From: a virus
Virus record (IMG/VR): IMGVR_UViG_3300027736_000020
Span: 96,001-160,000 of that record
DNA: 64,000 bases
Reading direction: 5' to 3' (one strand)
Positions 4,345 to 59,374 of the stretch are shown here, in pieces. Each line of letters starts with the position of its first letter. Positions within the stretch are counted from its first letter, which is position 1. A program made the translations under genes and the position numbers. The notes beneath the pieces are model-generated. The model made no database searches. It had not been told where the DNA came from and saw nothing but the letters and a program-made list of their open reading frames with translations.

Positions 4345-5919
4345 TCAAGGAATTGGCTTTGGATTTGGAATAAAATTAACTCCATAAGTATTTTCATATG
4401 CATAATGCCAATGTGGATCTTTTGTTATTACTGACGGAGATTTCAATGATTCTGAAAACTTATTATTTACTCCTGTTGCAAATTGTCCTCTTGGATTTGC
4501 AGATTGAACTCGGCGTCCATTTCTGTCTAAAAACAGATTAGCAGGAACCATTTTTTCACCTGATGCGCTTGTTATGCCACGTCTAGCAGGATCATAATTG
4601 GACATCCAAAGTTTTTTTGCTTTGTCTATTTGTGCATCTATCAACTTTTGTTTATATAATTCTTCATTAGCGTCTTGGTGATGCCAATTATCAAGTGCAT
4701 TCATATTCCAAGTCATTCCCGAATTTGATGCTTCCCATATTTTTCTTTTTTCTTGCAAATTATTTGTCATGTCGTTCCATACAGGAGTATAACTTTGATC
4801 ATGATTTTGCATCTCATTTCCATATGTAGATCTTGCCCTGTCAATGAGAGAACCTAAATGTTGAGCGTAAGATGCCTGATATTTGTCAAATTCATTTTCG
4901 TGATTTTTCATTGCTCTCATTTGAGACTTTATTCTTGAGCCGGGAGTGTAAACTTGAGTTAGTGGATCAATATCGTCATAATAATTTTGCACTTGTGCAG
5001 TGGGAGCATTTCCATACGCAGATCTTTCCCATCCTGTTTGCTCGTATCCTCCGGTACTTGGATCGTACTTGCTTGTAGGCCTTGCCGCTCCCATGACATT
5101 GCTTGCTATGGCCCCTTTGCCTTGTGCAAAATTCTTAAAAGAATTAATAGGCAAAACGCCTCTTCCATAATGATTTGTTCCAAGCATTCCGGAAAGACCA
5201 TGATTGATAATATCGGCTCCATAAATACCAGCAAACGTCGTTGCATTTCCGATGGCCTGCAAGATGTTCCATCCAGCAGCGCTTCCTTTTCCTGAATAGT
5301 TGATTTTTTCAGGATTATCTGGATCAACCGTTCCTCCCCAAGAAGGGACAATACGCGGAAGTATTCCAAGTTGTTTTCTGTTAAGAAGATCCAGTGAATT
5401 TTGAGGCAAAACATTCCAAGAAGATCTTCCTCTTCCTGCATATCCTGCTTTTCTTTTGGCTTTGCTTAATGACTCATCAATGTTTTTTTTTGATTGAAAA
5501 GATTTTTTCAATGAATTGTCTTCAAGCAAAAATTCATCAGGGAGTCCTGCTCTTGCTATGGCTTTTTGTAGTGCCAACATTCTTCCTGATAATGCAATTT
5601 GCATTGCAGCATTGTATTTTTTGTTGTCGCCATTTTTTGCGCCAAATGCTGATTCGATTGTGTGATCTTCTACGGATGGAGAAAGAAGTTTCTCAAAATC
5701 CTCAGTTGTTACAAGTTTCCCAATGACGGTTTTGCCGCTCAATTTCTTTTTGGCATCATTGATCAGTTTTTCAGTATTTTCTGCAATTTTTTTGTCATTA
5801 TCTAGAGTAGTAGTATTTTCAACGATCTTATCGCTGAGCAACGAAAAATCCTTGTCATCTTTAGGCCAATACCAATTAATTGGCAGTATATCTTTTTGGG
5901 ATTTTTTTAACTTTTTCAT
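4345..5919 (-). CDS. Hypothetical 524 aa protein, putative internal virion protein
   Basis: Starts MKKLKKSQ. LQKA, LKKS and LSKA lie in the first ~155 aa, followed by a G/N/S-rich body. Confidence 0.7.
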   Translation of the reverse strand: MKKLKKSQKDILPINWYWPKDDKDFSLLSDKIVENTTTLDNDKKIAENTEKLINDAKKKLSGKTVIGKLVTTEDFEKLLSPSVEDHTIESAFGAKNGDNKKYNAAMQIALSGRMLALQKAIARAGLPDEFLLEDNSLKKSFQSKKNIDESLSKAKRKAGYAGRGRSSWNVLPQNSLDLLNRKQLGILPRIVPSWGGTVDPDNPEKINYSGKGSAAGWNILQAIGNATTFAGIYGADIINHGLSGMLGTNHYGRGVLPINSFKNFAQGKGAIASNVMGAARPTSKYDPSTGGYEQTGWERSAYGNAPTAQVQNYYDDIDPLTQVYTPGSRIKSQMRAMKNHENEFDKYQASYAQHLGSLIDRARSTYGNEMQNHDQSYTPVWNDMTNNLQEKRKIWEASNSGMTWNMNALDNWHHQDANEELYKQKLIDAQIDKAKKLWMSNYDPARRGITSASGEKMVPANLFLDRNGRRVQSANPRGQFATGVNNKFSESLKSPSVITKDPHWHYAYENTYGVNFIPNPKPIP

Positions 5920-5921
5920 AG

Positions 5922-6695
5922 TTACATCACCACTCCGGATTGTACGACATTTGTATCAAAATTTTCGGCTTTTATGACTGGAAGATTTTCCAAAGGCATA
6001 GAACTCATATCTTCATCATCTATTTTGTGTCCCGCTTGATTCAAATAATACAATTGTAAATAATTATAAATAATTTTATTATGAAGATCTGTTGCATGAA
6101 TGACTTCCGGAGTTGCTCGTAAAATCTGTGGTATTCCTACCATGGGCAACAACAAATGAGAAGGTTTGTCGCAAATACCCAATGCGACTAATGACGCCCA
6201 TATGTATGCTGACTCATTCATTCCCATGGATTTCTGTTCTTCAATGAGATTTTCATCATATCCTGCTCGCCAATGAGGACACGTATCCATGCTTGAGGCA
6301 TACACAAGAAACTGAAAGTTTTTTATTTTTGGATTTAGGCATTTGCGTTTCAATGGATCCTTGCTGTTTTTTTCAGAAAGATATATGCATCCAATGCATG
6401 ATTTAAATTGTAAAAAATACCACCAAACGACGTGTTTGCCATTTGGCATTTTTGGAAGATCTACTCTTTCAACACCCAAGCATGCCATCATGTCAACAAC
6501 TTGTTCTGGACGAGACAGTATGTTCTGAGGAAGAGGTGAACGGTATGGTTCCAATTTTTTGGATAAGTCATCCATGAAAAATTTTGCCCAATCCCTATTT
6601 GCCGTATCAGACAATCTTGATCCAAATTGATTTTCGACGATGGATGGCACAGGTATTTTTACGGAAAAATTACTTGAGACTGTAGGATTATTCAT
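5922..6695 (-). CDS. Hypothetical protein with Cys cluster (CxxC...C...C)
   Basis: Start placed at ATG 6695 (MNNPTV), overlapping the upstream stop (ATGA); 'SCIGCIYL...KCLNP...TCPHW'. Confidence 0.65.
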   Translation of the reverse strand: MNNPTVSSNFSVKIPVPSIVENQFGSRLSDTANRDWAKFFMDDLSKKLEPYRSPLPQNILSRPEQVVDMMACLGVERVDLPKMPNGKHVVWWYFLQFKSCIGCIYLSEKNSKDPLKRKCLNPKIKNFQFLVYASSMDTCPHWRAGYDENLIEEQKSMGMNESAYIWASLVALGICDKPSHLLLPMVGIPQILRATPEVIHATDLHNKIIYNYLQLYYLNQAGHKIDDEDMSSMPLENLPVIKAENFDTNVVQSGVVM

Positions 6696-9600
6696 CTGGA
6701 CATATTCTTTTCTGGTTGTTCTTCCATTGGTTTGGCATTCCACACATTGTTTGACAAAAAGTGTGTGTGATTATTTGAAATGAATATTTCCGAATGATCA
6801 AGTTTTGGCAATAATACTTTTTCCTTGTTGCCCATAGGCAACAAGACAGAAATAGTTGCCGGATTATCTCCGTAATATTTTTCAGATGCCATGTCACTTG
6901 GAGCAACTTCTGAAGTATTTGCTCGAACCTCATACGCACCAATGATCGCTATTCTGCTTGAATCTGCACAAACTATTGTTCCATCATTATTGATAATAGT
7001 GGAATACCCCATGTGCAATGCTACTTTTTCCATGTCAAACATATCGTTGTTTGTCAATGTCAAAGAAAAAAGTGAACTTCCATTTTTTGATTGTTTCCAT
7101 TTTTTCCACGCCAAATATGTTTCTTCCAAATCTTTTTGCATTATTACTTTTCCCATATGATAATCAAATACAATCATGTATTTATCATCAACGATTTTTT
7201 CGTAATTATTTATTGAAGACATGATAGAAGCAATTGATTCTTTGTTTTTTATTGGAGAGTTCACCAGAGCATGCAATCCCGAATAAGACAATCCAAGATA
7301 ATTTTTCATACCAAGAAAAAACATGTTATTTACAGAATTTTTGTTTGTCCAGACAAAACATCGAGCAATTGAGCCTGTTGCTCCATCATAACTCATTCCC
7401 AAATCGCGAGCATAGGAAATTGCCGGATTTGTTTTTATCTGATTGATAACTGTTTTCATTTTTTTGAAGTATTGAGGATTATAAGAATGTAAAACAGACT
7501 CTCCATAAAACAATGGGATTCCATCATTAAAATCATTGACTTTTTGAACAAATTCACCCGAAAGTATTGTTTTCCTGTTTTGTGTAGGTATTTTTTTCCC
7601 AGCCATCATTGATTTTTCTGATTCCCAAATTTGTTCAATATTTACAGGAAAGAACTTATTTATTTGCATGTATTCACAAATCATTTGAAGAAGAATTTCA
7701 GGAGAAACAAAAGTATGTTCAGAAATTTCTTCAGAAACATTTTTCCCTTCTATTCCAAATTCCGGAATACTATCAACATCACAACGATAAACGTGATAAA
7801 GCATTTGCGCAGTGTGTTGATCGCCAGCAATTTTTGCAAGATGTGAAATCGCATCATCTACCGATCCTAATTTTCCTGTCTGAGCCTTGCCAAAAGCATC
7901 ATGATAACGAATTATTTTCATGAACATTTTTTTTTCTTCGGGATTGAAGAAAAATTCCGACGCAAATGATTCAGCAAGGATTGAAGAATATTTTGCATGC
8001 TCCTCTGAAACGCCGCCAACTCCTCCATCTTCACGAGAAGCTTTGCCAATGTCATGAAGTAGCGCTGCAACACGCAGGACGCGTATTGAGCGATCATTTT
8101 GAATCTCCTTGGCAGGACAATAGCCATTTGGTCTTGTGACATCAACAAGAGTGGCGCAATTTAACGAATGAGTCAATACGTCAATATTCTTGTGTCCCGG
8201 TCCTTGTTGCATTCCTTTCAATGAAGGAAACTGACGTGTCAGCCAAGATTTTACTGTCTCATATTGAGCAGACATCATGGTGTTATCTGGCAAGAATGGC
8301 ATTTCCCACTCAATGGTGTCTGTTTTGCTGGCAGAAAATAATTTTTCTGATGTTTTTGCGTAGCTTCCAGAAGAAATTCTCATATTTTTTTGAGCATTTA
8401 TTCCTTCAGTGTTAACCCAAAAAATAAAATCTGGAAGATATCCACAAACAATCATTTGCAGGCTTGAAAAAATGCTTACATTTCCAAATGCAAATTGCCT
8501 TTCTGGTTTGTATAAGAATATTGGATTTCCGTTATTGTCTGTGCAGGAAATTGAAAATGAATATATTTTTGAAAAGTCACTAGGAACGACTTTCTTTGTT
8601 TTGCTTGGAGAAGGAGTTTCTTTTGAGATTCTTTCAGCATGTAACCGCACGGAATACGAAAAATTAAATTTTTGATTATCAACTTTGATGAAGTCAAAAT
8701 ATGTTTTTTTGTCTGAAGCATTTGCCGGAATATCAAATTCGGTAACTTTGATCAAGCTTGGAACAAGCATCTTGTCCTTGGCGTTCATGGCAGTTGTATG
8801 CACTGCATGAATAATTGGAACAAAATTGATAAGTTTTACTGCAGATTCCTGATCTTTTATTTTTGATGATATTATTTGAGATTCATAAAAATTGGAAACT
8901 ATGGAAAAAAATTCTTTATAGTCTTGTATTGTATTGTTTTCAGGAGAAAGACTCAATAGTTCATTTTTCTCAAAAATACTTACATAATCAGTAAGATTTC
9001 CGTTTACTCTTTCCATGTTTCCATATTTAACAATGATAGAACTTGCATCATTTATCGAATACGATATGGGAACTGATGGAATGGTAATGGTTGCCGGAGC
9101 AACTCTTTTCCCAAGTATTGATTCTGATTTCATGTTTTCCAAAGAGGCTTCAAAAAGAATTTCATTGTTAACGGTATATTCAAAATCAGTAAAATCTGGA
9201 GCATTTTTAATTTTCATTGCTTTTGCCAATGCGACAAGACCAATGATATTTTCTCGATCTTCTTCTTCGGCAGCAATGAATATCTCTTGCACTTGCTCAA
9301 AAAAATTGTTAAAGAGCGTAACAATATGTCCTTTAGAAATATGTTGCCAATGAACATCTACATGAAAATTACTTCCCGGATATTCCACCCTGTAGGAATT
9401 TTCTGAAATCGCCTTGACAATTGCGCCTGTTAAAAATGTATGCCACCATATATTAGGGTTGAGCAACTCGTTTTTCATCTCGTGTGATTGCTTGTCCAAA
9501 ATATTTGCAATAGGATTCATGGATCTTGTGGGAAAATATGATGGAGCAATAATTGATACCTTGGAAGCAACTTGTCCTATTGAAGAAGAAGGAACATACG

Positions 9601-10783: not shown

Positions 10784-10791
10784 TTGTAGTT

Positions 10792-18429: not shown

Positions 18430-19110
18430 TTAGTCATCGTCTTCAGGATAATTTTGGTCGTCTATTCCGTCTTCATCTTGAATTGACCCAACTGCTGGCG
18501 GTCTGTAATGATCCGCAGAAAGAGTATACCCTTCTGGAATTTTTGGTGTTACATCAAAACCAGTGTATGGGTTCAGTTCATTTGGATGAAAATGCTCCAG
18601 AGGATGTATTCCAAGAGGGTTCGATCTCTTTATCTTACCCCGTCTATCTGAGTGCCTACCTGCTGGAGTTCCTTCTATTCCGGGATATTCAGTGTGAACT
18701 CCAAAAAATCCCAATATTGAGTGAGGTTTTGTCTTTTCAGCTTCTGGTGTTATTCTAAGTCCTCTTGTTTGTATCTCTTGCAATTTCTTGTATTCCTCTG
18801 GACTTGGAACGACATTTTGCGAATTGCCAGATAACCGTGCACTTAATCTGGAAAATATTGAAAATTCTCCGGGTGACAATCCCAACAATTCTGGATTCAT
18901 TTCTCCTTTTTTCGCTTCCGTCGATGATGGATAATAAGGATTTATTGGACGGATTGTTCCAGTATCTATTGTACCAGTATCAATTACATTTTCTTCTACT
19001 GAATCGTTAAGAGCGTCGGAAGGTAGTGTTCGGCCTTGGCCTAAATCTTCATCATCATCGTAGTCGTCGTCTATATCTTCAGTAACTGATGATTTTTTAA
19101 AAAAGAGCAT
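18430..19110 (-). CDS. Acidic hypothetical protein with MLFFKKSS N-terminus
   Basis: 226 aa with Asp-rich ends; carries the shared N-terminal tag. Confidence 0.75.
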   Translation of the reverse strand: MLFFKKSSVTEDIDDDYDDDEDLGQGRTLPSDALNDSVEENVIDTGTIDTGTIRPINPYYPSSTEAKKGEMNPELLGLSPGEFSIFSRLSARLSGNSQNVVPSPEEYKKLQEIQTRGLRITPEAEKTKPHSILGFFGVHTEYPGIEGTPAGRHSDRRGKIKRSNPLGIHPLEHFHPNELNPYTGFDVTPKIPEGYTLSADHYRPPAVGSIQDEDGIDDQNYPEDDD

Positions 19111-27798: not shown

Positions 27799-28737
27799 AT
27801 GCCACAATCTTTACGATTAAAAAAAGCATTAAAAAATTTAAATCACAGTAATTTGTTGCTTGAAAACATTAATGAGCATTTAACAATTTCTGTTTCTGGT
27901 GAAGAAGATCTTGAAAAAAGCCTTGGCAAGAACAGGGCTCCACAAAAACGTCCGACAAAAATCACTTCTTCTGCAGCATTTGAGGGGCACATAGGAACTG
28001 GAGTTCGCCCTTCGGCAAAATCAACCATGGCGAACAAAATCATTTCCTCCCTTATGGGAGGATCATCCTCACCTGCCAACGGTTCCTCGCCATTTCCTGC
28101 GATCACTTTTTCTGGACCATCAAAATCCCTTGGAGAATCCAAGGAAGACTGGCAATCTCATCCTAACTGTTCCGTTGGATCATTTGCTTTTATTCAACAT
28201 CCATACAAGCATCAACAACCCGTTTGGACACGAATCATTTCAATAGGAAAGCATGGAATACAAGCAAATGAAACCAGTGGACATACGCACAATGTGCGAT
28301 GGCCACACATTCTGGATATTCAGCCTGTTATTGGTCATGGCATTCATCCTGCTGAAGACAAAGAAGTAGTCATTGATTTACACAAGATGGGGGCACCACT
28401 TGAGCACGATAGCAAATTGTCTCATGCAGATTTGATGCATGCTGAAGAATATCTTCGTCAATTGAATCTTCCAATAATATCAGATCTCATTCATGGAGAA
28501 TTGGAAGATTCAGGTTCGGCATACGATGAGTTAAGAAATATTCATGCTCCACTTGATCCAGTTTCCATGACTGAAGATACTAGTGGCAAGAACAGCGTAT
28601 TGCCTGCGCATTTGCAGGAACTCATTGATGAGCTTTCTTCCATGGGCAAACCCATTGACGTTGAAAAACTTTCCAAGCTTCCCAAAAAAGATATTTTAAA
28701 AGTTCTTGAATATTATTTTAAGGATTCAAATATATGA
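27799..28737 (+). CDS. Hypothetical 312 aa protein (LKKA/LEKS N-terminus, possible SH3/Tudor-like beta domain)
   Basis: GGAG 6 nt upstream; 'SVGSFAFIQHP...WTRIISIGKHG...HNVRWPHI'. Confidence 0.7.
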   Translation: MPQSLRLKKALKNLNHSNLLLENINEHLTISVSGEEDLEKSLGKNRAPQKRPTKITSSAAFEGHIGTGVRPSAKSTMANKIISSLMGGSSSPANGSSPFPAITFSGPSKSLGESKEDWQSHPNCSVGSFAFIQHPYKHQQPVWTRIISIGKHGIQANETSGHTHNVRWPHILDIQPVIGHGIHPAEDKEVVIDLHKMGAPLEHDSKLSHADLMHAEEYLRQLNLPIISDLIHGELEDSGSAYDELRNIHAPLDPVSMTEDTSGKNSVLPAHLQELIDELSSMGKPIDVEKLSKLPKKDILKVLEYYFKDSNI

Positions 28738-30217: not shown

Positions 30218-33200
30218 ATGGACACAAGATTATCAAAGGCAAGAACAACAAGAAAACCTGCTCCTGCTAATGGCAAAAAAGACAGCACTAACAAAGCGGA
30301 TAAATCCAATGACAAGGTAACTACTCAGCCTTCTTTTATTCCTCCAATAACTTCTTCGGGAGAAAATACTGGGACAACAAGAGGACCGAATAACGACCCA
30401 GTGAATAACGCCATTCGCGCAGGACAGTCAAGTTTTTCCAATGGATCTTCTGTGTTCGCTGGTGGAATCCCTTTGGGAGATATTTTATCATTGCCGGGAA
30501 TTTTTTTAGCAGATACAGTCAGAAGAATGGTTGTTGGGAACAGATCAAAAAATCCCAAAGAAGTTGAAGTTCCTAAAACTGAAGTTGTTGGACCTGAAGC
30601 TCCTAAAACTGAAGTTCCTAAAGTTCGTGAAGCAGAAGCAGTAGCAAGACCACGAGGACCAACAGGAATTTCAGAACAACCTGTTGGAAAACCTCCTGCA
30701 AATTTGAGCCGTTACGAAGGAACATATGCCAGAGAATTGAATGAATTGGATTCAACAGTTAATCGAGGATATGTAGTGAATCCCGAAACAGGCGCATTGA
30801 CACCTCGCGGATTAGCACCAGTGAGAGAACCAGTGAGAGAACCTGTAAAACCCTCTAGTAAGCCTGCAGCTGCAAGTAAACCCTCTGGTAAGCCTGCTAA
30901 CTCCGCTAGTGCAAAAATGGAAGGTTTTTCCGGCGCTGGAGGAAAGGCCATAAGCGCTTTAATGGCATACGACATGGTTAATGCAATTACTGATATTAGT
31001 TGGAATACCATTCAAGATGCTTTAAACAATAAAACACCGGGAGACAGGTTAAATTGGGAGAGAAATAATATTGCCGCAAATGCTATTGATCTTGCAACAG
31101 GATTTGCTCGCGACACAATGGAAAACGGAGATCTGACACCGGGTCGTGAATCACGATATAGACAAGCGAGAATAGATCTGGCACAAAAGCAGAAACCTGT
31201 TATGGATGAAATTTCCAATCTTGCGGATATATACGAAAAGAGAGAAAGAGATCTTAGCTCTCCTACGTACAGGCAAGCTTTGGCTCTTGGCGGATACTTG
31301 AAAATTGACAAAGACGGAAAACCCATTCCTTTGGAATCCTATGTCAATTCGGAAAATAATAAAAATCCCATGGATCAACATTCACGGCAACAGGATTTGG
31401 CTGAAACTCCCGGAAATCATTTCATTGGCCCTGTTCCTTCGCCTTCAGAAATAAATCAAATGATTAGAGACGGAAAAATAACTGGAAATACTAAAGCTCC
31501 CGTTCGTCTTGTTCCCACAGAAGATGATCCCAATTTTCCCGGTTTTTGGGACAATATTCTGGCTGGAGATGTTCCCAAAGCGTTAAATGCAGCAATGGCT
31601 CCATGGTCTAGGGTTGGAAATGAGCTTGGAAAACCAGAAGTAACGAACGAAGGAAAAATAGTTCCAACAAACAGATCCGGTAGTACTCTTGCAATTGTTC
31701 CTAGGGATGTAGAAGATAAAAATAGTTTTCGTGGACTAATACCATTCATGAATAATATTACCGCAAAAAGAGATAAGAGAATCAAGCAAAATACATATTA
31801 TGATGGAATGAATTTAGGAGGAGATGCAGTAAAGGAAATGCTTCCCGGTGGACCTCAGGCTATTTCTCCTGTAGAGGCAAATACATTAAATTATATAGAA
31901 AGATTAAAAAGAAAAAATAAAATTGTTCCTAATTTGCCTGCAAGAGAAGGAATAGATGATTCATACGACTATCCTGATGATTTAAATCCAAATGAAGGGC
32001 TTTCTTCGGATTTAACGCGATCTATTTCTTCCAATGCAATGGCAAATTCATTGCTAAAATCGTATTCCAAAAAAAAAATATTAAAAAAAGCTTTGGTAAG
32101 CAGCCAATACAAAAAACCTTCAACGAATGAAGAACCAATTACCACAATAAAAGATCCTCCTAAATACAAAGCACAACCAGTGACTGAGCAGAGTCCTGCA
32201 GGCACGCCAATGCCTGACTACATCATTCCCAAGGGAAAAGGAAAAGCTTATAAAGACATTGTCAGCGGTGGTATCGAACCATATCCAAGAGAAACAATTG
32301 CAAGCGCGACGACACCGCGCACTCTAGAAGAAATACAAAGTGATCCAGTCCGAATTACTGTCACAAGAGGACCGGATGTAGGCGCACAAAAATTACCTCC
32401 TTCATCTCTTCCAAGCGTGCAACAACTTGCCGATTCACTATTTATTGGGTCTGGTGCTGCGCCAAAGGCAACAATTGGAAAATTTCCCAAAAGCCACTTT
32501 GATTATACTCCCGGAGGCAAAAAAACTATATGGAATCCTCAACAGTTAACAACACATCCTGATGCGTTTAATGGTAAAGAAAACATGGCTACGGACATGG
32601 AGGCACTTACAGGTACGGCGTATCCAATAGCAATTGATTCCCAAGGATCTCCATTGCTTGGGGATCATTTAGGTCATTCAGCAGATGCTCCTGCAGTTAT
32701 TCCTCATGGATTTTTTTCTAAAACAGCTGACGGTCAACTGGAAAGACTGCCTGATCAAGCATCATGGTATGAACTTCCAAAATCCACATTGCTTTATAAA
32801 AAAGGCGCAGGGAAACAAGAAGTTCTTGATCCTCAATCTGGAGATCCGGTAACACATTTAAGGTATTTGGGAGCTGTTACAAGAAAAGAAACAAGAGCAA
32901 GGACAGGTGCAGATTTTGCTGAATTTCCTGGAGCAGTGATAGATGATGCTAATTTTCGTGTTCCAGTTACTGGAATTCAGACAAAACACGTTGAAGGTTC
33001 TTTGTCTTGGCTGTTTACCAATATTTTTCCAATTCCATTATCCGGTGCTAGGCCAATATGGGTAGAGCAATCCATTGATGACATCATTGCTACGCACATA
33101 AGAAAATTTGGAATTGATAAAGCTCCTGATTTGAGCATAGAAGATATAGAAAAGCAAACTCTCAAAACCCCTGTTGATTCATTTCGGGCAGGAACAGGGC

Positions 33201-36025
33201 GTGCAAGAGGATTGGGCGAAGGAAGACGCTTGAGTTCTCCAGAAATTGCTCAATTTGAAGCAGAAAACAATTGGCCAAGAAACATTCGTGCTCCTATTTA
33301 TGGAGCAACCCAACAAGGAAGCTTGTTAAGCCAATTTGATTTTACTCCCAGACGTTGGGGAGAAATACCAAAAAGCAAAAGAAAAGATCAGGACTATTTG
33401 CGTGCAGTTTATGAAAGTATGGATGACAAAGAAAAAGCAGCAGTACGCCCGGCGACAATACTTTCCACTGGTGGATCTTGGACAGCATGGAAACCCGGAA
33501 ACGCACGAACTGTAGGCGGAAAAGTTCGCATGGAAACTACTGCAGATGCGTCCAGAAGAGGTCAATTGATTGCCAAAAATGATTTTCTTGACATAGAACG
33601 TCCATTGATAACGACAATTAATGGCGTTGCTGTAACGTTGACTGGTCGAGATGCGCGTATTCAAAGACAATATGATTTTGTTCAAGATCCAAAACTGAAT
33701 TCTCCACAAGAAAATAAATCTGCCATTGAAGCATTTGTCCGAGAAAAACTTGGCCTTAAAGAAACAGAGGCTATTCCTGATTTGAGTCCAGATCAAGAAT
33801 TGAAACTCATGGTTTATGAAGCATCTCTGAAAAAAGACAAGCTTCCTGAAGCCGTATGGGAGGAAATAAAAACGCATATTGATGCAAATGCATCACGTTT
33901 CAGCGAATGGAAAACAGCTGCGCGAATTCCTTATGAAGGCGATTACTCGATAGATCCACGTGACAGCAGAGGGGTTCGTCAACAATATGACGATCAAGGC
34001 AATATTGTCACCGATTTTTCGTTAAGTCGCATTAATGAAGATCCATCAGCATTTCCAAACACTTCTGTACCACAATCATCAGCTCAACGTTCTTGGGATT
34101 CACTAGAGGATTATGAAAAACAAGCATTTAATGGTTATTCCATAATTACGGTGAATGGACAAACTTTTAAAAGAGACAGGCGCGGCAAAGCTCAAGGACA
34201 ACCACTTTCAGAAGCAGAAATAACACAATTAAAAGAAGAGTATGCAAAAGACATAGAACAAAACATGGAAGATGCTTCAGCAGAAGCTGTTGGACAATTT
34301 GGATCTTCCACCAAAACCAATATTGGCGCAAATCAAGGAGAAATTAAAGCAATAAGTAAGCAGGATAGAGAACAATATGGAGGTAACGGAGAAAGAATTT
34401 ATCAAATGATAAATAATCTTGTCCGCAATAATCCAGTCGCATCAGTAGCAAAAATATATTCATCGGTAAGAACTGACAAAAAACGTGAAATTCTTGATGC
34501 TCAAAATACTGCTGCACAAGCACTTAATATTGATATCGGCATAACACCTCAGTCAATAAAGACAGGGTACATGACATTTTCTCCTAGCGGATATCCAAAT
34601 GGCAGGGATTCATTTTCATCCGGCGATGTTGATTTTTTGAAAAAATACAGTGATTTGCCTCATGATCAATATCTCAAGGACAAAATAGGAAAACTCATTG
34701 ATTTTTGGGAAAGTAAAATTTCAGACAAAGCAAATTATCCCAGTACAGGTAGGAAAAGTCCGCTTGATGAGAGTCATCTGAACACTAGCGATATTGGCAC
34801 TATTGGAAAACTAAAACAAGACATTATTGATGAATTAAAATCATTAACGTCAAAAAATAATGCTGGCAGTGATATTGCCGAATTGCGAGAAAGCATAAAA
34901 ACAGTATTTGGAAATAATGATGATGATTTTCTCGAAAAATCTACGTTTGAATACGCAAGAAAAATGGCATTTCAGCGTCTTCATGCAAAATCAATTATAA
35001 ATATTCAAAATCAGGTTTCAAATATTTTTGCAAAGGATCAAATAGATTCTCCAATTTCAGATTCAAAAATTATTGCTTCCAAAATAGGAACAGGAATATT
35101 GGCACTTACAGACAATCCTGCTGACAGAGCAGGAGTCAATGAATATCTTACTCTTGTTGCAATGAAAAAACTTCAAAATCCAAATACAGATTTTAATTCA
35201 TTGCCAACACCTTTGCCTGCTGCTGATCCTGCACAACTTGATGCAAAAACCATACAAACAGATTCTTTGGATAGGAACAACACAGACATTGCAAAGATGT
35301 TTTCAACATATTTGCAGCCAAAAGCGCTTCCATATTTGAAAACAATCATGACACTTGTAAATTCAAAAATAAATCAGGACAATTACGGATCAACAACACT
35401 CATGCCTGAGAATTTTACTGCAACAAATGAGCCGCAAAAATTACTTGAGATGCTTTATCAATCCAATGAAACAAATGTTTTGCAGCTTGAAACTGTACTT
35501 CGTGACATTGCAAATGAGTTAAGAACGTCTGGAGGAAAAGGAACGATCAAGAGAGCAAATATTGCCGGTAATCCTGCGTCAAGGACGCAATCCGAAAAAC
35601 CATATTTAATTCCATTGATGCCCGGTTTGAGTCATTTAAAGACTGCAGATTTTATTGATCCAGATACAAATGCTCTGATAATTCCACTTATTCATGAGCA
35701 TTTTAAAAATGAAATAAGCATTTCTGATCCCGAACAACGAATCAAGGGAACACCGCCCTTATGGAGCGATGGTGCGGGACAGGTAACAGGAAACGGGTGG
35801 ACAGCAAGAGAAAAACCTGCATCAACGACCATGCGAGATTGGGCGAGTGATTACAACAAAGTATTGCAAACTTTTGTTGATTCTCTTGTAAGAACAGATA
35901 AACCAGTTCAAATTCCAGAGTGGCTTGCCCAAACTCCGCAACATGTGGCAGATATCATTTCCAGAATAAATGTTGCTCCTGCTGTTCAGCAAACTCAATC
36001 GCTTTTGGGAGAAGAGGATGATTAA
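30218..36025 (+). CDS. Giant 1935 aa orphan protein, putative internal virion protein
   Basis: Uninterrupted ORF; starts MDTRLSKA; internal LLKS...ILKKAL at aa ~612; no enzyme motif recognised. Confidence 0.85.
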   Translation: MDTRLSKARTTRKPAPANGKKDSTNKADKSNDKVTTQPSFIPPITSSGENTGTTRGPNNDPVNNAIRAGQSSFSNGSSVFAGGIPLGDILSLPGIFLADTVRRMVVGNRSKNPKEVEVPKTEVVGPEAPKTEVPKVREAEAVARPRGPTGISEQPVGKPPANLSRYEGTYARELNELDSTVNRGYVVNPETGALTPRGLAPVREPVREPVKPSSKPAAASKPSGKPANSASAKMEGFSGAGGKAISALMAYDMVNAITDISWNTIQDALNNKTPGDRLNWERNNIAANAIDLATGFARDTMENGDLTPGRESRYRQARIDLAQKQKPVMDEISNLADIYEKRERDLSSPTYRQALALGGYLKIDKDGKPIPLESYVNSENNKNPMDQHSRQQDLAETPGNHFIGPVPSPSEINQMIRDGKITGNTKAPVRLVPTEDDPNFPGFWDNILAGDVPKALNAAMAPWSRVGNELGKPEVTNEGKIVPTNRSGSTLAIVPRDVEDKNSFRGLIPFMNNITAKRDKRIKQNTYYDGMNLGGDAVKEMLPGGPQAISPVEANTLNYIERLKRKNKIVPNLPAREGIDDSYDYPDDLNPNEGLSSDLTRSISSNAMANSLLKSYSKKKILKKALVSSQYKKPSTNEEPITTIKDPPKYKAQPVTEQSPAGTPMPDYIIPKGKGKAYKDIVSGGIEPYPRETIASATTPRTLEEIQSDPVRITVTRGPDVGAQKLPPSSLPSVQQLADSLFIGSGAAPKATIGKFPKSHFDYTPGGKKTIWNPQQLTTHPDAFNGKENMATDMEALTGTAYPIAIDSQGSPLLGDHLGHSADAPAVIPHGFFSKTADGQLERLPDQASWYELPKSTLLYKKGAGKQEVLDPQSGDPVTHLRYLGAVTRKETRARTGADFAEFPGAVIDDANFRVPVTGIQTKHVEGSLSWLFTNIFPIPLSGARPIWVEQSIDDIIATHIRKFGIDKAPDLSIEDIEKQTLKTPVDSFRAGTGRARGLGEGRRLSSPEIAQFEAENNWPRNIRAPIYGATQQGSLLSQFDFTPRRWGEIPKSKRKDQDYLRAVYESMDDKEKAAVRPATILSTGGSWTAWKPGNARTVGGKVRMETTADASRRGQLIAKNDFLDIERPLITTINGVAVTLTGRDARIQRQYDFVQDPKLNSPQENKSAIEAFVREKLGLKETEAIPDLSPDQELKLMVYEASLKKDKLPEAVWEEIKTHIDANASRFSEWKTAARIPYEGDYSIDPRDSRGVRQQYDDQGNIVTDFSLSRINEDPSAFPNTSVPQSSAQRSWDSLEDYEKQAFNGYSIITVNGQTFKRDRRGKAQGQPLSEAEITQLKEEYAKDIEQNMEDASAEAVGQFGSSTKTNIGANQGEIKAISKQDREQYGGNGERIYQMINNLVRNNPVASVAKIYSSVRTDKKREILDAQNTAAQALNIDIGITPQSIKTGYMTFSPSGYPNGRDSFSSGDVDFLKKYSDLPHDQYLKDKIGKLIDFWESKISDKANYPSTGRKSPLDESHLNTSDIGTIGKLKQDIIDELKSLTSKNNAGSDIAELRESIKTVFGNNDDDFLEKSTFEYARKMAFQRLHAKSIINIQNQVSNIFAKDQIDSPISDSKIIASKIGTGILALTDNPADRAGVNEYLTLVAMKKLQNPNTDFNSLPTPLPAADPAQLDAKTIQTDSLDRNNTDIAKMFSTYLQPKALPYLKTIMTLVNSKINQDNYGSTTLMPENFTATNEPQKLLEMLYQSNETNVLQLETVLRDIANELRTSGGKGTIKRANIAGNPASRTQSEKPYLIPLMPGLSHLKTADFIDPDTNALIIPLIHEHFKNEISISDPEQRIKGTPPLWSDGAGQVTGNGWTAREKPASTTMRDWASDYNKVLQTFVDSLVRTDKPVQIPEWLAQTPQHVADIISRINVAPAVQQTQSLLGEEDD

Positions 36026-53203: not shown

Positions 53204-53223
53204 TATAAAAGGCGGAGAGACAT

Positions 53224-55314
53224 ATGAAATTTTTTGAAAAAACCCCTTTTCCGTTCAAGATAAATAGTTTTCGCAAGGCAGAAGAAACACCATCTGAAGG
53301 TAATTTTGTCAATAGTGACGGCAATCCTGTTGAAAGAGCGGTTCGTCCATCTTTCGCAAATGGTGCAACAAAACCTTTTATCGGCAATGCGCAAGGTGAG
53401 CGTGTAAATAGGGTAAAAAATCCATCTTTTTCTGGACAATCTAGTCCTTTTTTTGTCAATCGAGAAGGAAGTGTTGTTCAAGCTGCAACACTTCCTTCTT
53501 ATACAAACACTGAAGGACAAACTGTTGACGCGCTAGCCAATCCTTTGTTTGTAAACAAAGAAGATGCCCCTGTTCCAAGAGCAAGGAATCCTGCTTTTCT
53601 ATCTGATGAAGAGATAGTGCATGCTTCGCCAAGAAATGTTTCAAATTTCTATTCTCCTTCTGTAACGGGAAAACAAGCAAAAACGAGCAGAGCAGTAGAC
53701 GAAATCCGAGCAGAAAGAGAACAAAACCCTCGTTCAGCGAATGAGGATGGCATAGCCGTTGATCCAATGATTGTCCCACTTTACGTAATAGACGAAAATG
53801 GAGACGTAACCACTGCGCTGAGGCGAGATTCTTTTGGTCCTTATTCATACATGCAACATAATGACAGTGATTACGTGGGAGCAGAGAGAAGATTAACTGG
53901 TGCACAAGGAAATTGGGGTGAGGAAGGTCTTGGTCCTGTAGCAGATGATTCTGAATTTGCATCACCTACGGCAACGCGGGCAGAAATGCTTGCAAGAATT
54001 CTTCGTGAAGAATACCTGAAGAGAGAATATCTAGCACAGCAGGGAGAGAAAATTGGAGGATTGCCTTTCAGTCCGCTTGCTACAAGTGCAAGATACTATG
54101 CTGGTAATTTTGATGCAAAAAATATGAATGCAAACAATTCTCAAGGACAATCTCCAAAAATGTGGGCATTCAGGGAAACGATGCAGCTTCCCGATAATCG
54201 TGAAGAACAAAAAGATTGGCGGCATATGACAACAGACTCGCCAACACCAAATTCTGGAAAACCTTATGATCTTGGAGAATCTTTTCGTAATTCTGCAGCT
54301 CAAGATATTGCAGACATGATTGAAGCTCATTTACGTGCCACTGGACAATGGCCAGAAAATAAACCAAGTATAGAAGTTAAAGCATTCAGGCAAGGTCCTT
54401 CTTCGAAAAATTTTCAAGCACAGAAAACAAAAAAAGCGGAAGAAGAAAAAGTAGATAAACTAAAAAATAGTTTTTCAAATATTGCAAATGAGGAAATAAT
54501 AAACCACATTCAATCATTCAGAGATTATGCAGTAAGATCAATGTGGGAAAATCCTGATCATTTACGAGATTATGAAGCAGCAGGGAAAATACTTCTTGAT
54601 CGATTGAACGAATCATTGAAAGATGATGATCGTTCTGAAATCTTTTTGGAAGATTTGGACACAGAAGGAATGGATGAAGAAGAGATTGCTACATGGCATG
54701 CAATGACAAATGCCACTAACGAGAGACTTGTGCATTATTTTTCTGGTCATTATCCAGATTTTGTTCACGATGCAGCTCTTTCTGAAATATCTTTTAGATT
54801 GCAACCAGAAGAAGATGAGCCACAAGCTCCGCAACCGCCAGCTCCGCAACCGCCAGCTCCGCAACCGCCAGCTCCGCAACCGCTAGCTCCGCAACCGCTA
54901 GCTCCGCAACCGCCAGCTCCGCAACCGCCAGCTCCGCAACCGCCAGCTCCGCAACCGCCAGCTCCGCAACCGCCAGCTCCGCAACCGCCAGCTCCGCAAC
55001 CGCTAGCTCCGCAACCGCCAGTCTCAACAAATTCATTTGAATCAATCATGCATAATTTTGGTCATGTCAAGGGAACGGGAACGAATCTTAGCGATCAAGA
55101 AATAAATTCATTGACTCCTGAACAGTTTGATATTTACTCTGAGGCTTTGATGAATGGATCATTGGATGCATGGCTGGAGACAAATACTCCGAAACCGTCG
55201 AATAATCAAACTGTATCGACACCAGAGATTAATAGATCCGCAGCTGTTGATCCAGATGTTGATCCAGATCCAGATGATGAATATTTACCTGTCGGTATTG
55301 ATGATTTTTTTTGA
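53224..55314 (+). CDS. 696 aa hypothetical protein with N-terminal degenerate repeats and APQPP tract
   Basis: Long ORF with GGAG; FRKA near the N-terminus; ends GIDDFF. Confidence 0.8.
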   Translation: MKFFEKTPFPFKINSFRKAEETPSEGNFVNSDGNPVERAVRPSFANGATKPFIGNAQGERVNRVKNPSFSGQSSPFFVNREGSVVQAATLPSYTNTEGQTVDALANPLFVNKEDAPVPRARNPAFLSDEEIVHASPRNVSNFYSPSVTGKQAKTSRAVDEIRAEREQNPRSANEDGIAVDPMIVPLYVIDENGDVTTALRRDSFGPYSYMQHNDSDYVGAERRLTGAQGNWGEEGLGPVADDSEFASPTATRAEMLARILREEYLKREYLAQQGEKIGGLPFSPLATSARYYAGNFDAKNMNANNSQGQSPKMWAFRETMQLPDNREEQKDWRHMTTDSPTPNSGKPYDLGESFRNSAAQDIADMIEAHLRATGQWPENKPSIEVKAFRQGPSSKNFQAQKTKKAEEEKVDKLKNSFSNIANEEIINHIQSFRDYAVRSMWENPDHLRDYEAAGKILLDRLNESLKDDDRSEIFLEDLDTEGMDEEEIATWHAMTNATNERLVHYFSGHYPDFVHDAALSEISFRLQPEEDEPQAPQPPAPQPPAPQPPAPQPLAPQPLAPQPPAPQPPAPQPPAPQPPAPQPPAPQPPAPQPLAPQPPVSTNSFESIMHNFGHVKGTGTNLSDQEINSLTPEQFDIYSEALMNGSLDAWLETNTPKPSNNQTVSTPEINRSAAVDPDVDPDPDDEYLPVGIDDFF
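54826..55020 (+). repeat. 13 x 15-bp tandem repeat (gctccgcaaccgc[c/t]a; APQP[P/L])
   Basis: Counted directly; GC-rich and nearly perfect. Confidence 0.95.
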
Positions 55315-55416: not shown

Positions 55417-57270
55417 ATGGTTCAGTTATTAATAAAGAAAACAAATCAACCGGAAAACCTTGAAAAATCAATTGGTGATTGGTTTAGAAGACTATTTGGT
55501 GGAACAAAAAGCGACAAAAAAACTGTCTTCAAAAAAACTTCGCCTGTATCACACATGTTTCCCGATTTATATTCCGAGCCAATTACTGAAAAACCTCTCT
55601 TATACAAAAAAAATGACCAAGGAATCATGGAGGCAACTCTTTCAAAACAAGAGCATGACGAATGGGAAAAACTTATTAAAAAAATAACTGACGGTTTTTT
55701 CCGCAGAAAAGTAAATGAACATTTCAAAGATAGTGAAAAATCAGACAAATGGATAAGACAATCTCTTGGCAACTTAACAGAGAGACAAGATGTAGCAAGA
55801 AGCAAAAAAATTATTCAAGATTTTCTTGAAAAGATAATTCCTGCGCATAAAGTGCAAATTCCTTCCAGCATTGAATCTTCCGAAGATTATCTGAAAAAAC
55901 TTTTTACTGAAGAACAGCAAAAAAGTATTTATGATATGATCCCTGATTTGCCGATGAAGGCAAAATTTCCTGAACTATTGCCAAATGACAAGGCAAACAC
56001 AACAGAACCATCAGTCGTAGCACAACCATCAGTTGTAGCAACAGCACCAGTCGTAGCACAACCATCAGTCGTAGCACAACCACCAGTTGTAGCAACAGCA
56101 CCAGTTGTAGCAACAGCACCAGTTGTAGCAACAGCACCAGTTGTAGCAACAGCACCAGTCGTAGCAACAGCACCAGTCGTAGCACAACCATCAGTCGTAG
56201 CACAACCACAACCAACTTCCGTCGGTGTTGGGCAATCACTGCCTTCTCCAATCCGTACTGCTCGCGTGCTTACCGTTTCAGAGCGCCGCGCTCTCAATCC
56301 TAATTATGATACCACTTTAGGTACTTCAATACATGATTTTATAAATAGATTTATAACAAGAGTCATTATTGATGCAGATGAATCAACTGGTGATTCTTTG
56401 CAAAAAAAATCATTTATACTAGAAAAACTCAGATCACTGGCTGCAACTGCAAAAGTTCAACCAAAAGGAATATTTAATTCAGGAATTCCAGCTGCTGATT
56501 TTGCTGTGGATTTCTGGAAATTGTGCAATTCAACGCAATTCAATGCCTTGAATATTGGAAAAACAAAAACAGACTTTCAAGCACACATTGAAGATTCTTT
56601 TTTGCGGAAAAAAAGACAAATAGAAATTGATTCTCCCTTGAATCAAAAATGGAGTGAAGGAGACATAACTGAAGTTTTGGCAGATGATAGGCAATCTGAA
56701 AAAATAACCAAACATCCACAAACAGGAAAAGATGAAGCCCTGATTGTGGATGTTTTTAGGCCCAGAATATTACAAAATGGAAAACAAATCATAGCACCAT
56801 TTGTTGCATTAGGAAAAATTCCTTCGCTTTCATCATCGATTGATCCTGTTCCTGATCAGGGAAACTCAGGAATTAGCAACGTAGAAGGAAAAAATAATCC
56901 TGCAAATTCTGCTAGTGTAACTGCTCCCACAGAGCCAACATCTGTGACTCCCACAAATCCTTTGCCATTTGAAATGACAATAAATGCCAATAAGTCTAAA
57001 GGAGAATTTAAAAAATTTGGTGAATCAATTGCGGATTATGCAACAATTTCAAGAATAAAAACAAATGGATCAAATCAAACGCATCAAATTTCCTATCAAC
57101 CAGAACATTACGATAAAATATTAGAAGAAATGCAAAAACACCCAACATTAAGCTCACAGGCAATACTATTCGAAAAACACGGAGTTGGTTCAGTTGAATC
57201 TCCTGAAGTCGTTCCTCCCCCTGAAATCAACCCTACGCCAGCAAAGGACGAAGCCGATGACGTTTTTTAA
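55417..57270 (+). CDS. 617 aa hypothetical protein with VVA(QPS/TAP) tract and possible GrpE-like beta domain
   Basis: Starts MVQLLIKK...LEKS; GrpE-like segment at ~56570-56820; ends EADDVF. Confidence 0.8.
   Translation: MVQLLIKKTNQPENLEKSIGDWFRRLFGGTKSDKKTVFKKTSPVSHMFPDLYSEPITEKPLLYKKNDQGIMEATLSKQEHDEWEKLIKKITDGFFRRKVNEHFKDSEKSDKWIRQSLGNLTERQDVARSKKIIQDFLEKIIPAHKVQIPSSIESSEDYLKKLFTEEQQKSIYDMIPDLPMKAKFPELLPNDKANTTEPSVVAQPSVVATAPVVAQPSVVAQPPVVATAPVVATAPVVATAPVVATAPVVATAPVVAQPSVVAQPQPTSVGVGQSLPSPIRTARVLTVSERRALNPNYDTTLGTSIHDFINRFITRVIIDADESTGDSLQKKSFILEKLRSLAATAKVQPKGIFNSGIPAADFAVDFWKLCNSTQFNALNIGKTKTDFQAHIEDSFLRKKRQIEIDSPLNQKWSEGDITEVLADDRQSEKITKHPQTGKDEALIVDVFRPRILQNGKQIIAPFVALGKIPSLSSSIDPVPDQGNSGISNVEGKNNPANSASVTAPTEPTSVTPTNPLPFEMTINANKSKGEFKKFGESIADYATISRIKTNGSNQTHQISYQPEHYDKILEEMQKHPTLSSQAILFEKHGVGSVESPEVVPPPEINPTPAKDEADDVF
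56014..56211 (+). repeat. 11 x 18-bp tandem repeat (VVAQPS/VVATAP)
   Basis: Two alternating unit variants counted directly. Confidence 0.9.
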
Positions 57271-57271
57271 A

Positions 57272-59374
57272 ATGCTCGTACTGAAAAAATCTTCAGAAGA
57301 GCCACCCATTGATCCATCATCTTCTCCTGAAGTGCATCCAATCGTCGATAAATTGAATCAGGCTCGTAGTGCTGCCGATGTGGTCAGAGTAATGGGGGAA
57401 TGGAGAAAAGATCCAGACGCAATGGAAAAAGTAGGTAATTTTGCAGAATTGGCACGGGCCCGCCAAAGGGCGCTAACTGGTGTTCAGCCATTTGTGCCCA
57501 CACCAAGACCTGCACCAAGACCTTCATCAAACCCTGCACCATCAAACCCTGCACCATCAAACCCTGCACCATCAAACCCTGCACCATCAAACCCTGCACC
57601 ATCAAACCCTGCAACACGCGCTGTTGACGACGATGGTCCACCAGATGATGATGATCTATGGGCTGGTTATGATAATTTGAGAAATGATCGTCCTGATACT
57701 CGCCTCGTTGCTCCATTTACACCAGAAGGTTTTACACCAGAAGGTGTCACAACTGAAAGACCGACTGAGCTGATAGCTGAATTCATTCCAGAATCAGATC
57801 AAAGAAGAAGACGCAGGGAACTTTCTCCTGCTGTACGCAGTCTTCTGATCAGGCCAGAGCACAGAGGCCCCAATGCTCTTTTCCCTATGATGTTGCTAGG
57901 GCCTCCTGTGCAACGAGTAGCCGCAACATTACCAGAAAATCAAGGTGTTGAAATTTCCGAAGAAAAACAAGCGCTTATTGACAAGATCATGGGTACACCA
58001 AAACCTCCACAGAACCAGAATGATTTGTCTCCCGAGCAACGTACAGCACAAAGAATAAATGCCATGATTAGGGCAGATTTTACACCAGCTGAACAAATGC
58101 AAGCACAGCAAAAACTTATTGATCTTGATGTTCCTAGAGATGATTTTGCAAAATTAAAGACAATGTCAATGGAAGATTTACAGCTTATGTCGGACATGAT
58201 TGATCATCATTCAGCAAAAATTGACACATTAAAAAAATTAAATATTGAAAACAGTGATTTGCTTGATAATGATCAATTGAAGCAATTGATCACTGAAAAA
58301 GGCAGGGCAGACCTTTTTGATCCAGATCCTTTGGATGAAATGTTCCAAGGAAAATCTGATTTGACAAGAGCCGCAATGATCAAGAATGAATTCATCAAAA
58401 AAGAGCTTAAAAGAATCAGTCATTACATAAGCAGCAGTAATAGAGAAAATATTTTTGGAACAGACGATCCCTCTGAATACACAAAATTTGTTAGGAAACT
58501 TCATGAAATTACACAACATTATCAACAAACTGATAATGTGAAAATTATCACTCAAGCGCTTAATTCAGGAATGCCTGTTGGATACTATGAATTAAATTTA
58601 TTCCGCGAACACAAAGGTCTTCCTCCGCTCACAAGAGAAGAAATTGATGCAGCGATGTCTGAAGAACGCAAAAAAGAATATGAATTGCCTTCTTTGCTTA
58701 CCACTGGTACAGCAGATCCTAAACAACGAGAAAAACTATTGCAACAATATGGATACTTTATTGATTTGATGAATAAAGATAAAACATATGATAAAGATGC
58801 TCGCGCAGCCAATTTGTACGGCATGCTTCTTATTCACAATATGATAAAAAGGCAAAATGCAAGAACTGCACCAGCAAGAACTGCACCAGCAAGAACTGCA
58901 CCAGCAAGAACTGCACCAGCAAGAACTGCACCAACAGGAATTGCACCAACAGGAATTGCACCAGAAGCAGACATTTGGATACCAGCGTTGGAAAAGACGA
59001 TCAAAGACCCTTCAATTTTAAGTTTTCCCAATCTTGCCGCAAAAATGCAAACAGCAATTGCTCACGCAAAAACAGGCGATATAAAATCAATGATGAGTGT
59101 ATATTTTGACGCAATCACATCTACTGAATTTCGTCTTGGAAATACGAATAAAATTCGTGAAAGAGTAGAAATAGAAATGAGAGGGGAAGACTCTACCCAG
59201 TTAAGAAATGAATTTCAGTCGTTTGAGACCCTTGTTCGTCTGTTTCTCAGGGATAAATTTAAAATGGAACTTTCTACACCAGAAGGAATTTGGTCACCAT
59301 CGCAAAAGGGAAAACCAATGAAATATGTATTGACCAGCACAGAAGACGGCAAAGAGCAACAGTTTGAAACCTAA
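57272..59374 (+). CDS. ~700 aa hypothetical protein with MLVLKKSS N-terminus and Pro-rich repeats
   Basis: Start moved to ATG 57272, 1 nt after the upstream stop; carries the shared tag. Confidence 0.8.
57526..57615 (+). repeat. 6 x 15-bp tandem repeat (atcaaaccctgcacc; SNPAP)
   Basis: Five perfect units plus one variant. Confidence 0.95.
58859..58963 (+). repeat. 5 x ARTAP plus 2 x TGIAP 15-bp tandem repeat
   Basis: gcaagaactgcacca x5, acaggaattgcacca x2. Confidence 0.95.

Follow-up and report, generated by a model that had tools for sequence, protein, structure and literature searches.

A candidate head-loading leader ending in a predicted head-protease site on unrelated large proteins of an uncultured phage

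Introduction

Loading of proteins into phage heads by means of a terminal peptide is already known from T4 and P1. In T4, the first 10 residues of IPIII suffice for loading (PMC9026906; Mullaney and Black 1996 cited there), and Alt loses a 7-residue N-terminal propeptide and is trimmed at its C-terminus too (PMC9026906). In the part of PMC9024508 that deals with P1 DarB, a 250-kDa protein, the first 30 residues are described as carrying a reporter into capsids. Polyvalent proteins, as portrayed in the pertinent part of Iyer et al. 2017 (PMC5512222), are giant multi-domain conflict proteins that are encoded with late or packaging genes and are predicted to travel in the capsid. Here, we analyse a stretch of 64,000 nucleotides (the window), bases 96001-160000 of a single 184,088-bp contig of an uncultured phage (IMG/VR record IMGVR_UViG_3300027736_000020, 43.6% GC), in which large unrelated proteins begin with a very short hydrophobic and dibasic leader, hereafter also the tag. 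Window coordinates refer to this stretch and genome coordinates to the whole contig; Φ stands for a hydrophobic residue and an arrow marks a predicted cut.

The closest likeness is with the T4 capsid-targeting sequence (CTS), a 7-10 residue N-terminal peptide carried by the internal proteins IPI-III and by Alt, which are otherwise unrelated, and ending in the motif of the head protease gp21, by which it is removed. As with the CTS, a short terminal peptide is found here on unrelated proteins; the T4 cargo, like the putative cargo here, includes an ADP-ribosylation-related enzyme, and the processing of Alt at both termini has a counterpart in what we propose below for a second set of tagged proteins. 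The two systems differ in their proteases, gp21 cutting after Glu (Φ-x-E↓) and the SPO1/A511-type enzyme of the studied phage presumably after Lys (Φ-x-K↓S, A or T). Instead of a gp21-family protease, we found a match to PHROG 1028 and to the A511 protease, and a motif ending in Lys. The capsid lineages differ as well, and the putative cargo of the studied phage is up to 2566 residues long (4202 in a relative). The tag system is thus predicted to be CTS-like in its working, and no homologue of that of T4.

P1 DarB resembles the proteins described here in being a giant helicase-containing anti-restriction protein, encoded beside portal and protease genes, with an N-terminal signal of more than 9 and up to 30 residues. 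The DarB part of PMC9024508 describes no removal of this signal by a protease and names Hdf, DarA, DdrA, DdrB and Ulx as required helpers, none of which was identified in the studied phage, where no search by sequence similarity to the P1 system was made. For polyvalent proteins, the pertinent part of PMC5512222 describes processing via internal peptidase domains and no terminal tag matched to a head protease. Polyvalent proteins are recognised by two or more conflict-related domains per polypeptide; Pfam returned one domain for each giant of the studied phage (UvrD, DprA, HD or NADAR), most giants showing a single recognisable domain. In the giant phages SPN3US, phiKZ and 201phi2-1, many head-internal or ejected proteins are reportedly trimmed at one motif by the prohead protease, a T4-like enzyme said to cut after Glu; compared with those propeptides, the tags described here are minimal, with 6-18 residues. 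What would be new is the addition to the polyvalent-protein picture of a protease-matched, very short and portable leader.

Results

A short word marks the starts of unrelated large proteins

An earlier note on this window had listed nine N-termini ending in a hydrophobic-KK(S/A/T) pattern. All nine were found where they had been placed and, as the note had held, BLASTP among the tagged proteins revealed no similarity. The core word of the tag is M-x(0-3)-Φ-Φ-[KR]-K-[STA]. When the six-frame translation of the contig (368,172 codons) was scanned with the expression M.{0,3}[LIVFMY][LIVFMY][KR]K[STA], only eight matches were obtained. Five of them open ORFs of 226, 2566, 844, 617 and 700 residues (Table 1), and the remaining three fall in short frames without genes (15, 22 and 107 codons). 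The shorter word [LIVFM][LIVFM]KK[ST] occurs six times in the predicted proteome, each time inside the first 40 residues, and at none of 52,356 interior positions. When residues 2-12 were shuffled within each protein, 0.13 matches were obtained on average and never more than 2 in 5000 trials, as compared to the 5 observed. The AT-rich composition, against which the earlier note had asked for a check with shuffled ORFs, thus does not account for the tag.

With a reduced alphabet, "hydrophobic-basic-basic-small" was the second most N-terminally enriched 4-mer (p 3e-5), hydrophobic runs ranking above. The motif search on N-termini that had been suggested was run as a home-made expectation-maximisation procedure on the first 28 residues. 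Its best motif was indeed x-L-[LF]-[RK]-K-S-E, with a significance that is marginal when taken alone (log-likelihood ratio 141 versus 119-137 in 12 shuffles); the same motif also catches the EPLNKSF of the capsid protein. The looser word Φ-x-K-[SAT] was seen within the first 13 residues in 14 of 103 proteins, about 5.7 proteins being expected by chance. The Ser codons of the tags are TCA, TCT, AGC and AGT, hence from both the TCN and AGY families, and the Leu and Lys codons vary too. Since the codons differ between copies, the signal lies at the protein level, and a nucleotide-level motif was rejected. In the pair of paralogue-like proteins encoded at 163.8-166.2 kb, a 15-residue leader is the only part in common.

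The membership that the earlier note had proposed was upheld for the strict tags. MDTRLSKA, MPQSLRLKKA and MKKLKKS are weak, their motifs being indistinguishable from chance. Overall, the tag is real, does not arise by chance, and is under selection at the protein level.

The leader ends in a predicted site for the head protease of the phage

The earlier note had advised a search for the capsid propeptide and the protease elsewhere on the contig. Both are encoded next to the window, at genome 91521-95944, the protease, scaffold and capsid genes lying 56-4479 bases before its start. The capsid protein shows distant homology to SPO1 gp6.1 (PDB 9vel, E 9e-19) and to the phi812-type protein (5lii), with 22-26% identity to capsid proteins of Bacillus SPO1-like, Bacteroides DAC and Thermus phages. 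Its protease shares 32% of residues with that of the A511 prohead (E 5e-20). The phage thus possesses the homologous capsid protein and protease of the SPO1/K/A511 type of maturation.

The cleavage of A511/K-like capsid proteins, on which the earlier note relied, could be traced: the A511 record gives the mature protein from Ser24, after E-D-A-L-K. This assignment reportedly goes back to N-terminal sequencing by Loessner and Scherer. When the N-termini of five Herelleviridae capsid proteins were aligned by eye, Φ-x-K↓S, A or T appeared at one aligned place, 15-25 residues before a conserved G-A-L-R-x-E block (A511 A-L-K↓S; K-like MSA6 V-V-K↓S; SPO1 L-N-K↓A; Goe7 I-S-K↓T; Lbab1 A-V-K↓A). K-like capsid chains in the PDB have 463 or 439 residues, a difference of 24 that fits V-V-K24↓S25. 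The Herelleviridae (A511 Cps, K/phi812, SPO1 gp6.1) share with the studied phage a homologous capsid protein, the protease and the aligned site. In the studied phage, the capsid site reads D-E-I-R-K↓A-L-N-T-G (K44↓A45), with a second site, L-N-K↓S, at 19↓20; both are kept in 11 related contigs. The protease has a site of its own, F-S-K↓A, about 18 residues before the aligned core, as A511 has L-E-K↓S about 10 residues before.

As an unbiased test, we also ranked all 166 predicted proteins by their enrichment in Φ-x-K-[SAT] words. The scaffold came first, with 11 sites versus 2.5 expected (p 6e-5), and the protease second, with 8 versus 1.6 (p 3e-4). These are the two proteins that a prohead protease should be expected to digest. 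Six of the scaffold sites are conserved in three relatives. Next in enrichment (p about 1e-3) came a 101-aa protein (window 2875-3180, minus strand) and a 154-aa protein (29735-30199, plus strand), possibly small internal or scaffold-like head proteins. The scaffold also contains a Pro/Gly-rich repeat, PPPGGPMGG, and its near-pure Asp/Glu core of about 100 residues is very variable in length among relatives.

Each tag closes with F-K-K↓S, L-K-K↓S, I-K-K↓T, F-R-K↓S or F-R-K↓A, and the I-R-K↓A of the capsid protein is an instance of this same word. As judged by homology and by site enrichment, the peptide thus ends in the motif of the head protease, and the prediction that the leader ends in the phage's own head-protease site is well supported in silico. 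The proposal of a targeting and cleavage signal is borne out to this extent at its cleavage end, homology of protease and capsid protein and enrichment of the site pointing the same way; targeting, packaging and injection are argued by analogy. Semi-tryptic peptides after Lys, which had been suggested as a mass-spectrometry read-out, are unworkable: K↓S is itself a tryptic site, and trypsin-based proteomics cannot reveal cleavage after Lys.

The leader is conserved beside a drifting linker

With the capsid protein as query, 11 related loci were retrieved from IMG/VR, and five partial relative contigs of 70-80 kb each, with capsid proteins 57-62% identical, were compared. No close relatives were retrieved from IMG/VR when the 226-aa protein, the DprA giant or the NADAR protein served as query. 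An exhaustive HMMER search with the NADAR protein yielded four orthologue clusters (P0010-P0013) of 58-89% identity. Their residues 1-11, MVY[LI][LV]F[KR]KSEG, are almost invariant, whereas only two positions are invariant among residues 12-27. The alignment therefore displays a conserved tag, a drifting linker and a conserved domain from residue 28. The first ATG of the NADAR gene, at 53144, would place METKT before MVYLLFKKS, with the tag 5 residues in. Gene callers started the orthologues of this protein at MVY... and those of the 705-aa protein, which poses the same question, at MTFFK.... Four orthologues of the latter, 80-87% identical, all have one identical 14-residue start. For the first 500 residues of the UvrD giant, a single orthologue was found (82%).

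The NADAR family is modular and its inserts come and go. A homologue of the N-terminal domain of the NADAR protein stands at the C-terminus of a 904-aa protein (P0015), the leader of which is of the other type, ...KPFPFAIWPNTLQK↓S. The studied phage and P0011 alone have a macro-like insert; neither macro nor DUF488 domains reached E 0.01 in the Pfam search. In the same family, P0021 (841 aa) starts with MPSLRKHFKK↓A, and P0016 (4058 aa) shares one domain.

In the relative G002, a UvrD giant of 4202 residues starts with MVVVFRK↓SEEGP. Other starts in relatives are MSLYFKK↓S, MVLLKKG, MLVLSK↓AEK, MNRIVK↓S and MMQQALMK↓S, the last two belonging to orthologues of the HD giant in G001 and G002, respectively.

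A second tag occurs at either terminus

The word WF-x-x-[SAT]-[IV] occurs 8 times in the proteome, and in 7 cases within 18 residues of a terminus (2 N-terminal, 5 C-terminal). Φ-R-K↓S-E-D stands a few residues after each N-terminal copy. Of the five C-terminal copies, three come immediately after M-K-K↓S, V-K-K↓S or F-R-R↓S, that is, after [KR][KR]↓S. In either orientation, the site thus parts the tag from the body of the protein, as expected for a removable docking peptide and not for an N-degron or a translation signal. Seven proteins carry this tag or its variants, three of them with a WF-type tag at both ends, and the variants PFPF-A-I and FF-x-x-T-V behave alike in the studied phage and in the relative G003. 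A run of six genes on the minus strand (genome 156459-166176) carries the WF tag. With encapsulin cargo peptides, invoked as an analogy only, which sit at either terminus, bind the HK97-fold shell from inside and are not removed, the only feature in common is the use of either terminus; in the studied phage, a predicted cleavage site parts tag from cargo.

Tagged proteins are depleted in cysteine

Cys makes up 0.14% of the five strictly tagged proteins (7 in 4987 residues), 0.24% of the other tagged proteins, 0.44% of the structural block, 0.89% of the replication and nucleotide enzymes and 0.85% of the rest. As compared to replication enzymes, strictly tagged proteins thus contain about six times less Cys (Fisher p 2e-8). 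Among the 54 proteins of at least 300 residues, 17 have no Cys: 12 are tagged or belong to the six-gene run, 4 are tail proteins and 1 lies in the replication block. Of the tail four, two are of the fibre type, one comes from the baseplate region and one is the tape measure, a protein that leaves through the tail. The six-gene run (1280, 293, 312, 478, 420 and 377 aa) has no Cys at all in about 3160 residues, and giants of relatives have 0.17-0.31%. Low GC is not the cause, because the HD giant, at 34% GC, has 0.95% Cys. We infer that virion and ejected proteins avoid Cys, and the structural set of this genome agrees.

Head-proximal giants are probably read with the head genes

On the minus strand, no gap of at least 50 bases separates the called ORFs from genome 123829 to 96109, and scans for terminator-like hairpins and for consensus promoters and terminators gave background levels only. 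Because of the unbroken ORFs and the background level of hairpins, the UvrD giant, the acidic 226-aa protein, the DprA giant, the HD giant and the 524-aa protein are probably co-read with the head genes. The tagged giants directly adjoin these genes and point the same way, their order is kept in G001 and G002, and three conserved head-module genes form the link from the cargo block to those for protease, scaffold and capsid protein. As described for polyvalent proteins, large proteins are therefore encoded with late head genes.

The head-proximal cargo block (window 4000-28000) has 34-40% GC, as compared to 53-55% in the adjacent capsid and scaffold genes. This contrast suggests a fast-turnover accessory region. 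An HNH or homing-endonuclease-like gene (window 3140-3688, minus strand; PHROG 559, E 2e-14) lies amid the head-module genes.

Discussion

The reading that we favour, and hold to be probable without being strongly so, is that the leader is a cleavable head-loading peptide analogous to the T4 CTS and adapted to an unrelated, Lys-specific protease. The leader (M-Φ2-4-[KR]-K↓S, T or A, usually followed by an acidic/Ser/Pro linker) would be a removable propeptide of 6-18 residues, its last four residues forming the site for the phage's own SPO1/K/A511-type prohead protease, which would cut after Lys. This protease should find its substrates within the prohead during assembly. If so, non-structural proteins that are unrelated but have a conserved site for it at 6-18 residues from their start would be built into the prohead. 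In the simplest case, the leader itself would dock them there. The poly-acidic scaffold core is a candidate docking partner and, speculatively, an electrostatic one for the dibasic tags. The leader would then be clipped during maturation, like the T4 CTS, and in the WF set a peptide at either end would play its role. The freed cargo would remain in the head, exit with the DNA and act early against host defences; it would include the UvrD-type giant, the NADAR protein, the acidic 226-aa protein and several Cys-free orphans. The steps from cleavage through packaging and ejection to an anti-defence role are proposals; targeting, presence in the virion and injection are suggested by the analogy with T4 CTS and Alt and with P1 DarB, by the proximity of head genes and by Cys depletion. 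Most of the doubt that we attach to this reading bears on packaging and ejection, and less on the reality of the tag or on its match with the protease site.

Several observations weigh against it. Φ-x-K-[SAT] is a loose word, present 278 times in the proteome, so that the agreement between tag and site is only moderately specific; P4 is Glu in the capsid site and hydrophobic in the tags. A tail hub protein (genome 79500-81449) starts with MISFRK↓S, which is either chance or an argument against head specificity. The DprA giant carries no recognisable tag, and the HD giant, with its normal Cys content, is uncertain as cargo. Remote from the head module, the genes at 50-59 kb make up separate units with extended -10 promoters of an ordinary kind. 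The -10 element, TGnTATA(A/C)T, is found 10-35 bases before tagged, fibre and DNA polymerase III genes alike; since it is common to these classes, the promoters give no sign of late expression. Sequences downstream of stop codons showed no temporal-class marker. In partial relative contigs, the enrichment of the loose motif was not significant as a class. Finally, no other protein of the A511 head module has such a leader and there is no such tag set in it; as a portable cargo tag, the site appears to be specific to the studied uncultured clade.

The cleavage-site evidence is silent on ejection, and the leaders may also be read as head-protease sites on proteins that are internal or scaffold-like head components, or that are activated by processing, with targeting residing elsewhere and no injected payload. 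The acidic 226-aa protein and the small site-rich proteins do resemble scaffold-type fillers, and most of the cargo has no recognisable enzymatic domain. We nevertheless find this reading unlikely, given that UvrD and NADAR domains have no obvious role in assembly and match polyvalent or Dar-like injected content, and that the leader is the sole element common to unrelated proteins, hence the most economical targeting determinant. It is less likely still that the leader is another sorting or turnover signal, either an N-degron for a host AAA+ protease or the site of a host N-terminal-processing protease. Such a signal predicts neither the match with the capsid site nor the enrichment in scaffold and protease, the C-terminal WF tags, with their site facing the protein body, do not fit an N-degron, and a Cys depletion that matches or exceeds the one in virion proteins would be left unexplained. 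What speaks for it is the hydrophobic-basic N-terminus itself, which presumably resembles ClpX N-motifs and the L27 extension (..FFASKK); Prp, which trims L27 as well as capsid proteins of the staphylococcal phage 80alpha, is an example of such a processing protease.

The least credible of the explanations, and one that comes close to being refuted, is that the pattern results from selection at the start of the mRNA in low-GC genes, where A/U-rich codons such as AAA and UUU would leave the ribosome site unstructured, or from mere chance. Tagged genes have 36-42% GC and the tags are rich in TTT and AAA. Composition-keeping shuffles nevertheless fell far below the observed count, both Ser codon families are used along with Leu and Val codons containing G and C, and the tag is kept in relatives at 45-48% GC and, beside the drifting linker, in 58-89% orthologues. 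In addition, the word is missing from protein interiors, and the only six-frame matches outside gene starts are the three in short non-gene frames. We rejected the AT-rich start-region explanation on codon variety and shuffles. The idea that the giants are tag-punctuated polyproteins was also dropped, as tag cassettes inside them are few: the UvrD giant has KK↓SFF at residue 737, and a 1529-aa protein has it at residue 1169.

A broader form of the head-loading reading, to which we give less than even weight, is a portable two-word cargo code. M-Φ-Φ-Φ-[KR]-K↓S, and WF-x-x-S-[IV] at either end and bounded by KK↓S, might both dock proteins of up to about 4000 residues on the scaffold and allow Lys-specific release. 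If so, the two words would be interchangeable between cargoes and between phages, and would provide a 6-9 residue handle for capsid loading. The set of injected proteins decides the first minutes of infection and is invisible for uncultured phages. A leader ending in the phage's own head-protease motif would let injected arsenals be predicted from metagenomes and would flag orphan giants as candidate anti-defence proteins, while very short tags would load foreign proteins into capsids. The "target, then clip" logic of T4 would also extend to an unrelated protease of opposite charge specificity (Lys versus Glu), which suggests convergent evolution.

Features of the window and minor observations

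The coordinates are gathered in Table 1. Pfam, PHROGs and the ESM Atlas assigned no family to the 226-, 312-, 617-, 696-, 700- and 1935-aa proteins.

Table 1. Tagged genes, their leaders, head genes and related elements (window coordinates unless genome or contig coordinates are indicated)
Feature	Position	Strand	Remarks
Three conserved head-module genes (201, 226, 484 aa)	109..2873	-	226-aa product is PHROG 1004, virion structural protein
524-aa basic Cys-free protein	4345..5919	-	head-proximal block; moderate tag MKKLKK↓S, weak on motif grounds; L008 orthologue MTMKNLKK↓SQKD
HD giant, 1363 aa	6692..10783	-	HD domain; possible leader ..IPFFSIPDKLK↓SFSE
DprA giant, 2222 aa	11471..18139	-	DprA domain; operon-like block with other giants; Cys 0.27%
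Acidic 226-aa protein	18430..19110	-	Cys-free, pI 4.6
Leader of 226-aa protein	19090-19110	-	strict tag MLFFKK↓S, then Asp-rich linker
UvrD giant, 2566 aa	19129..26829	-	C-terminal UvrD/REP helicase, residues 1993-2541; 3 Cys
Leader of UvrD giant	26809-26829	-	strict tag MLIFKK↓S; second LFFK↓S about 20 residues in
312-aa protein	27799..28737	+	MPQSLRLKK↓A, weak; G002 positional counterpart without tag
1935-aa orphan giant	30218..36025	+	weak tag MDTRLSK↓A; 0 Cys versus about 16 expected at 0.85%
NADAR protein, 844/849 aa	50595..53144	-	NADAR domain, Pfam E 9.6e-15
Leader of NADAR protein	53103-53129	-	strict tag MVYLLFKK↓SEG; variable acidic/Ser/Pro linker; conserved domain from residue 28
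696-aa Cys-free orphan	53224..55314	+	no family
Leader of 696-aa orphan, 18 residues (PFPF variant of WF tag)	53224-53277	+	MKFFEK↓TPFPFKINSFRK↓AEE; PFPF second-tag variant and F-R-K↓A site
617-aa orphan	55417..57270	+	no family
Leader of 617-aa orphan	55417-55443	+	strict tag MVQLLIKK↓T; NLEK↓S and VFKK↓T also within first 40 residues
705-aa Cys-free orphan (700 aa from tag start)	57257..59374	+	internal Pro/Ala-rich peptide repeats
Leader of 705-aa orphan	57257-57292	+	site then ↓SSEE; first in-frame ATG 57257, tag 5 residues in
3' part of 1280-aa Cys-free protein	60459..64000	-	extends past window; first of six-gene run
Head maturation protease	genome 94898-95944	-	PHROG 1028, E 7e-26
Scaffold-like 532-aa protein	genome 93288-94886 (L005:17288-18886)	-	long poly-Asp/Glu core
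Major capsid protein	genome 91521-93266	-	PHROG 752
Sheath, tube and tape-measure genes	just before window	-	
Portal and large terminase	genome 16-20 kb		
WF-tag proteins outside window	L001:5245-6615, 7141-11730, 12618-12917, 13798-16410; L006:3777-6176		
Extended -10 sites	window 53145-53223, 29300-29381; genome 7100-7140, 65270-65336, 1030-1066, 166123-166160		

The -10 element of the NADAR gene lies only about 10 bases from the first ATG, and its mRNA may be nearly leaderless. In the 705-aa orphan there are two short tandem peptide repeats, one of a five-residue Pro/Ala/Ser/Asn unit and one of A-R-T-A-P, and the number of copies varies among the 80-87% orthologues. The 5′ ends of the divergent 171-aa and 312-aa ORFs overlap by 31 bases (window 27799-27829), so that either start, but not both, is probably misplaced. 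A cluster of eight tRNA genes (Gly, Arg, Asn, Thr, Leu, Gln, Lys, Met) occupies window 40834-45234, where several mechanically called ORFs are probably no genes.

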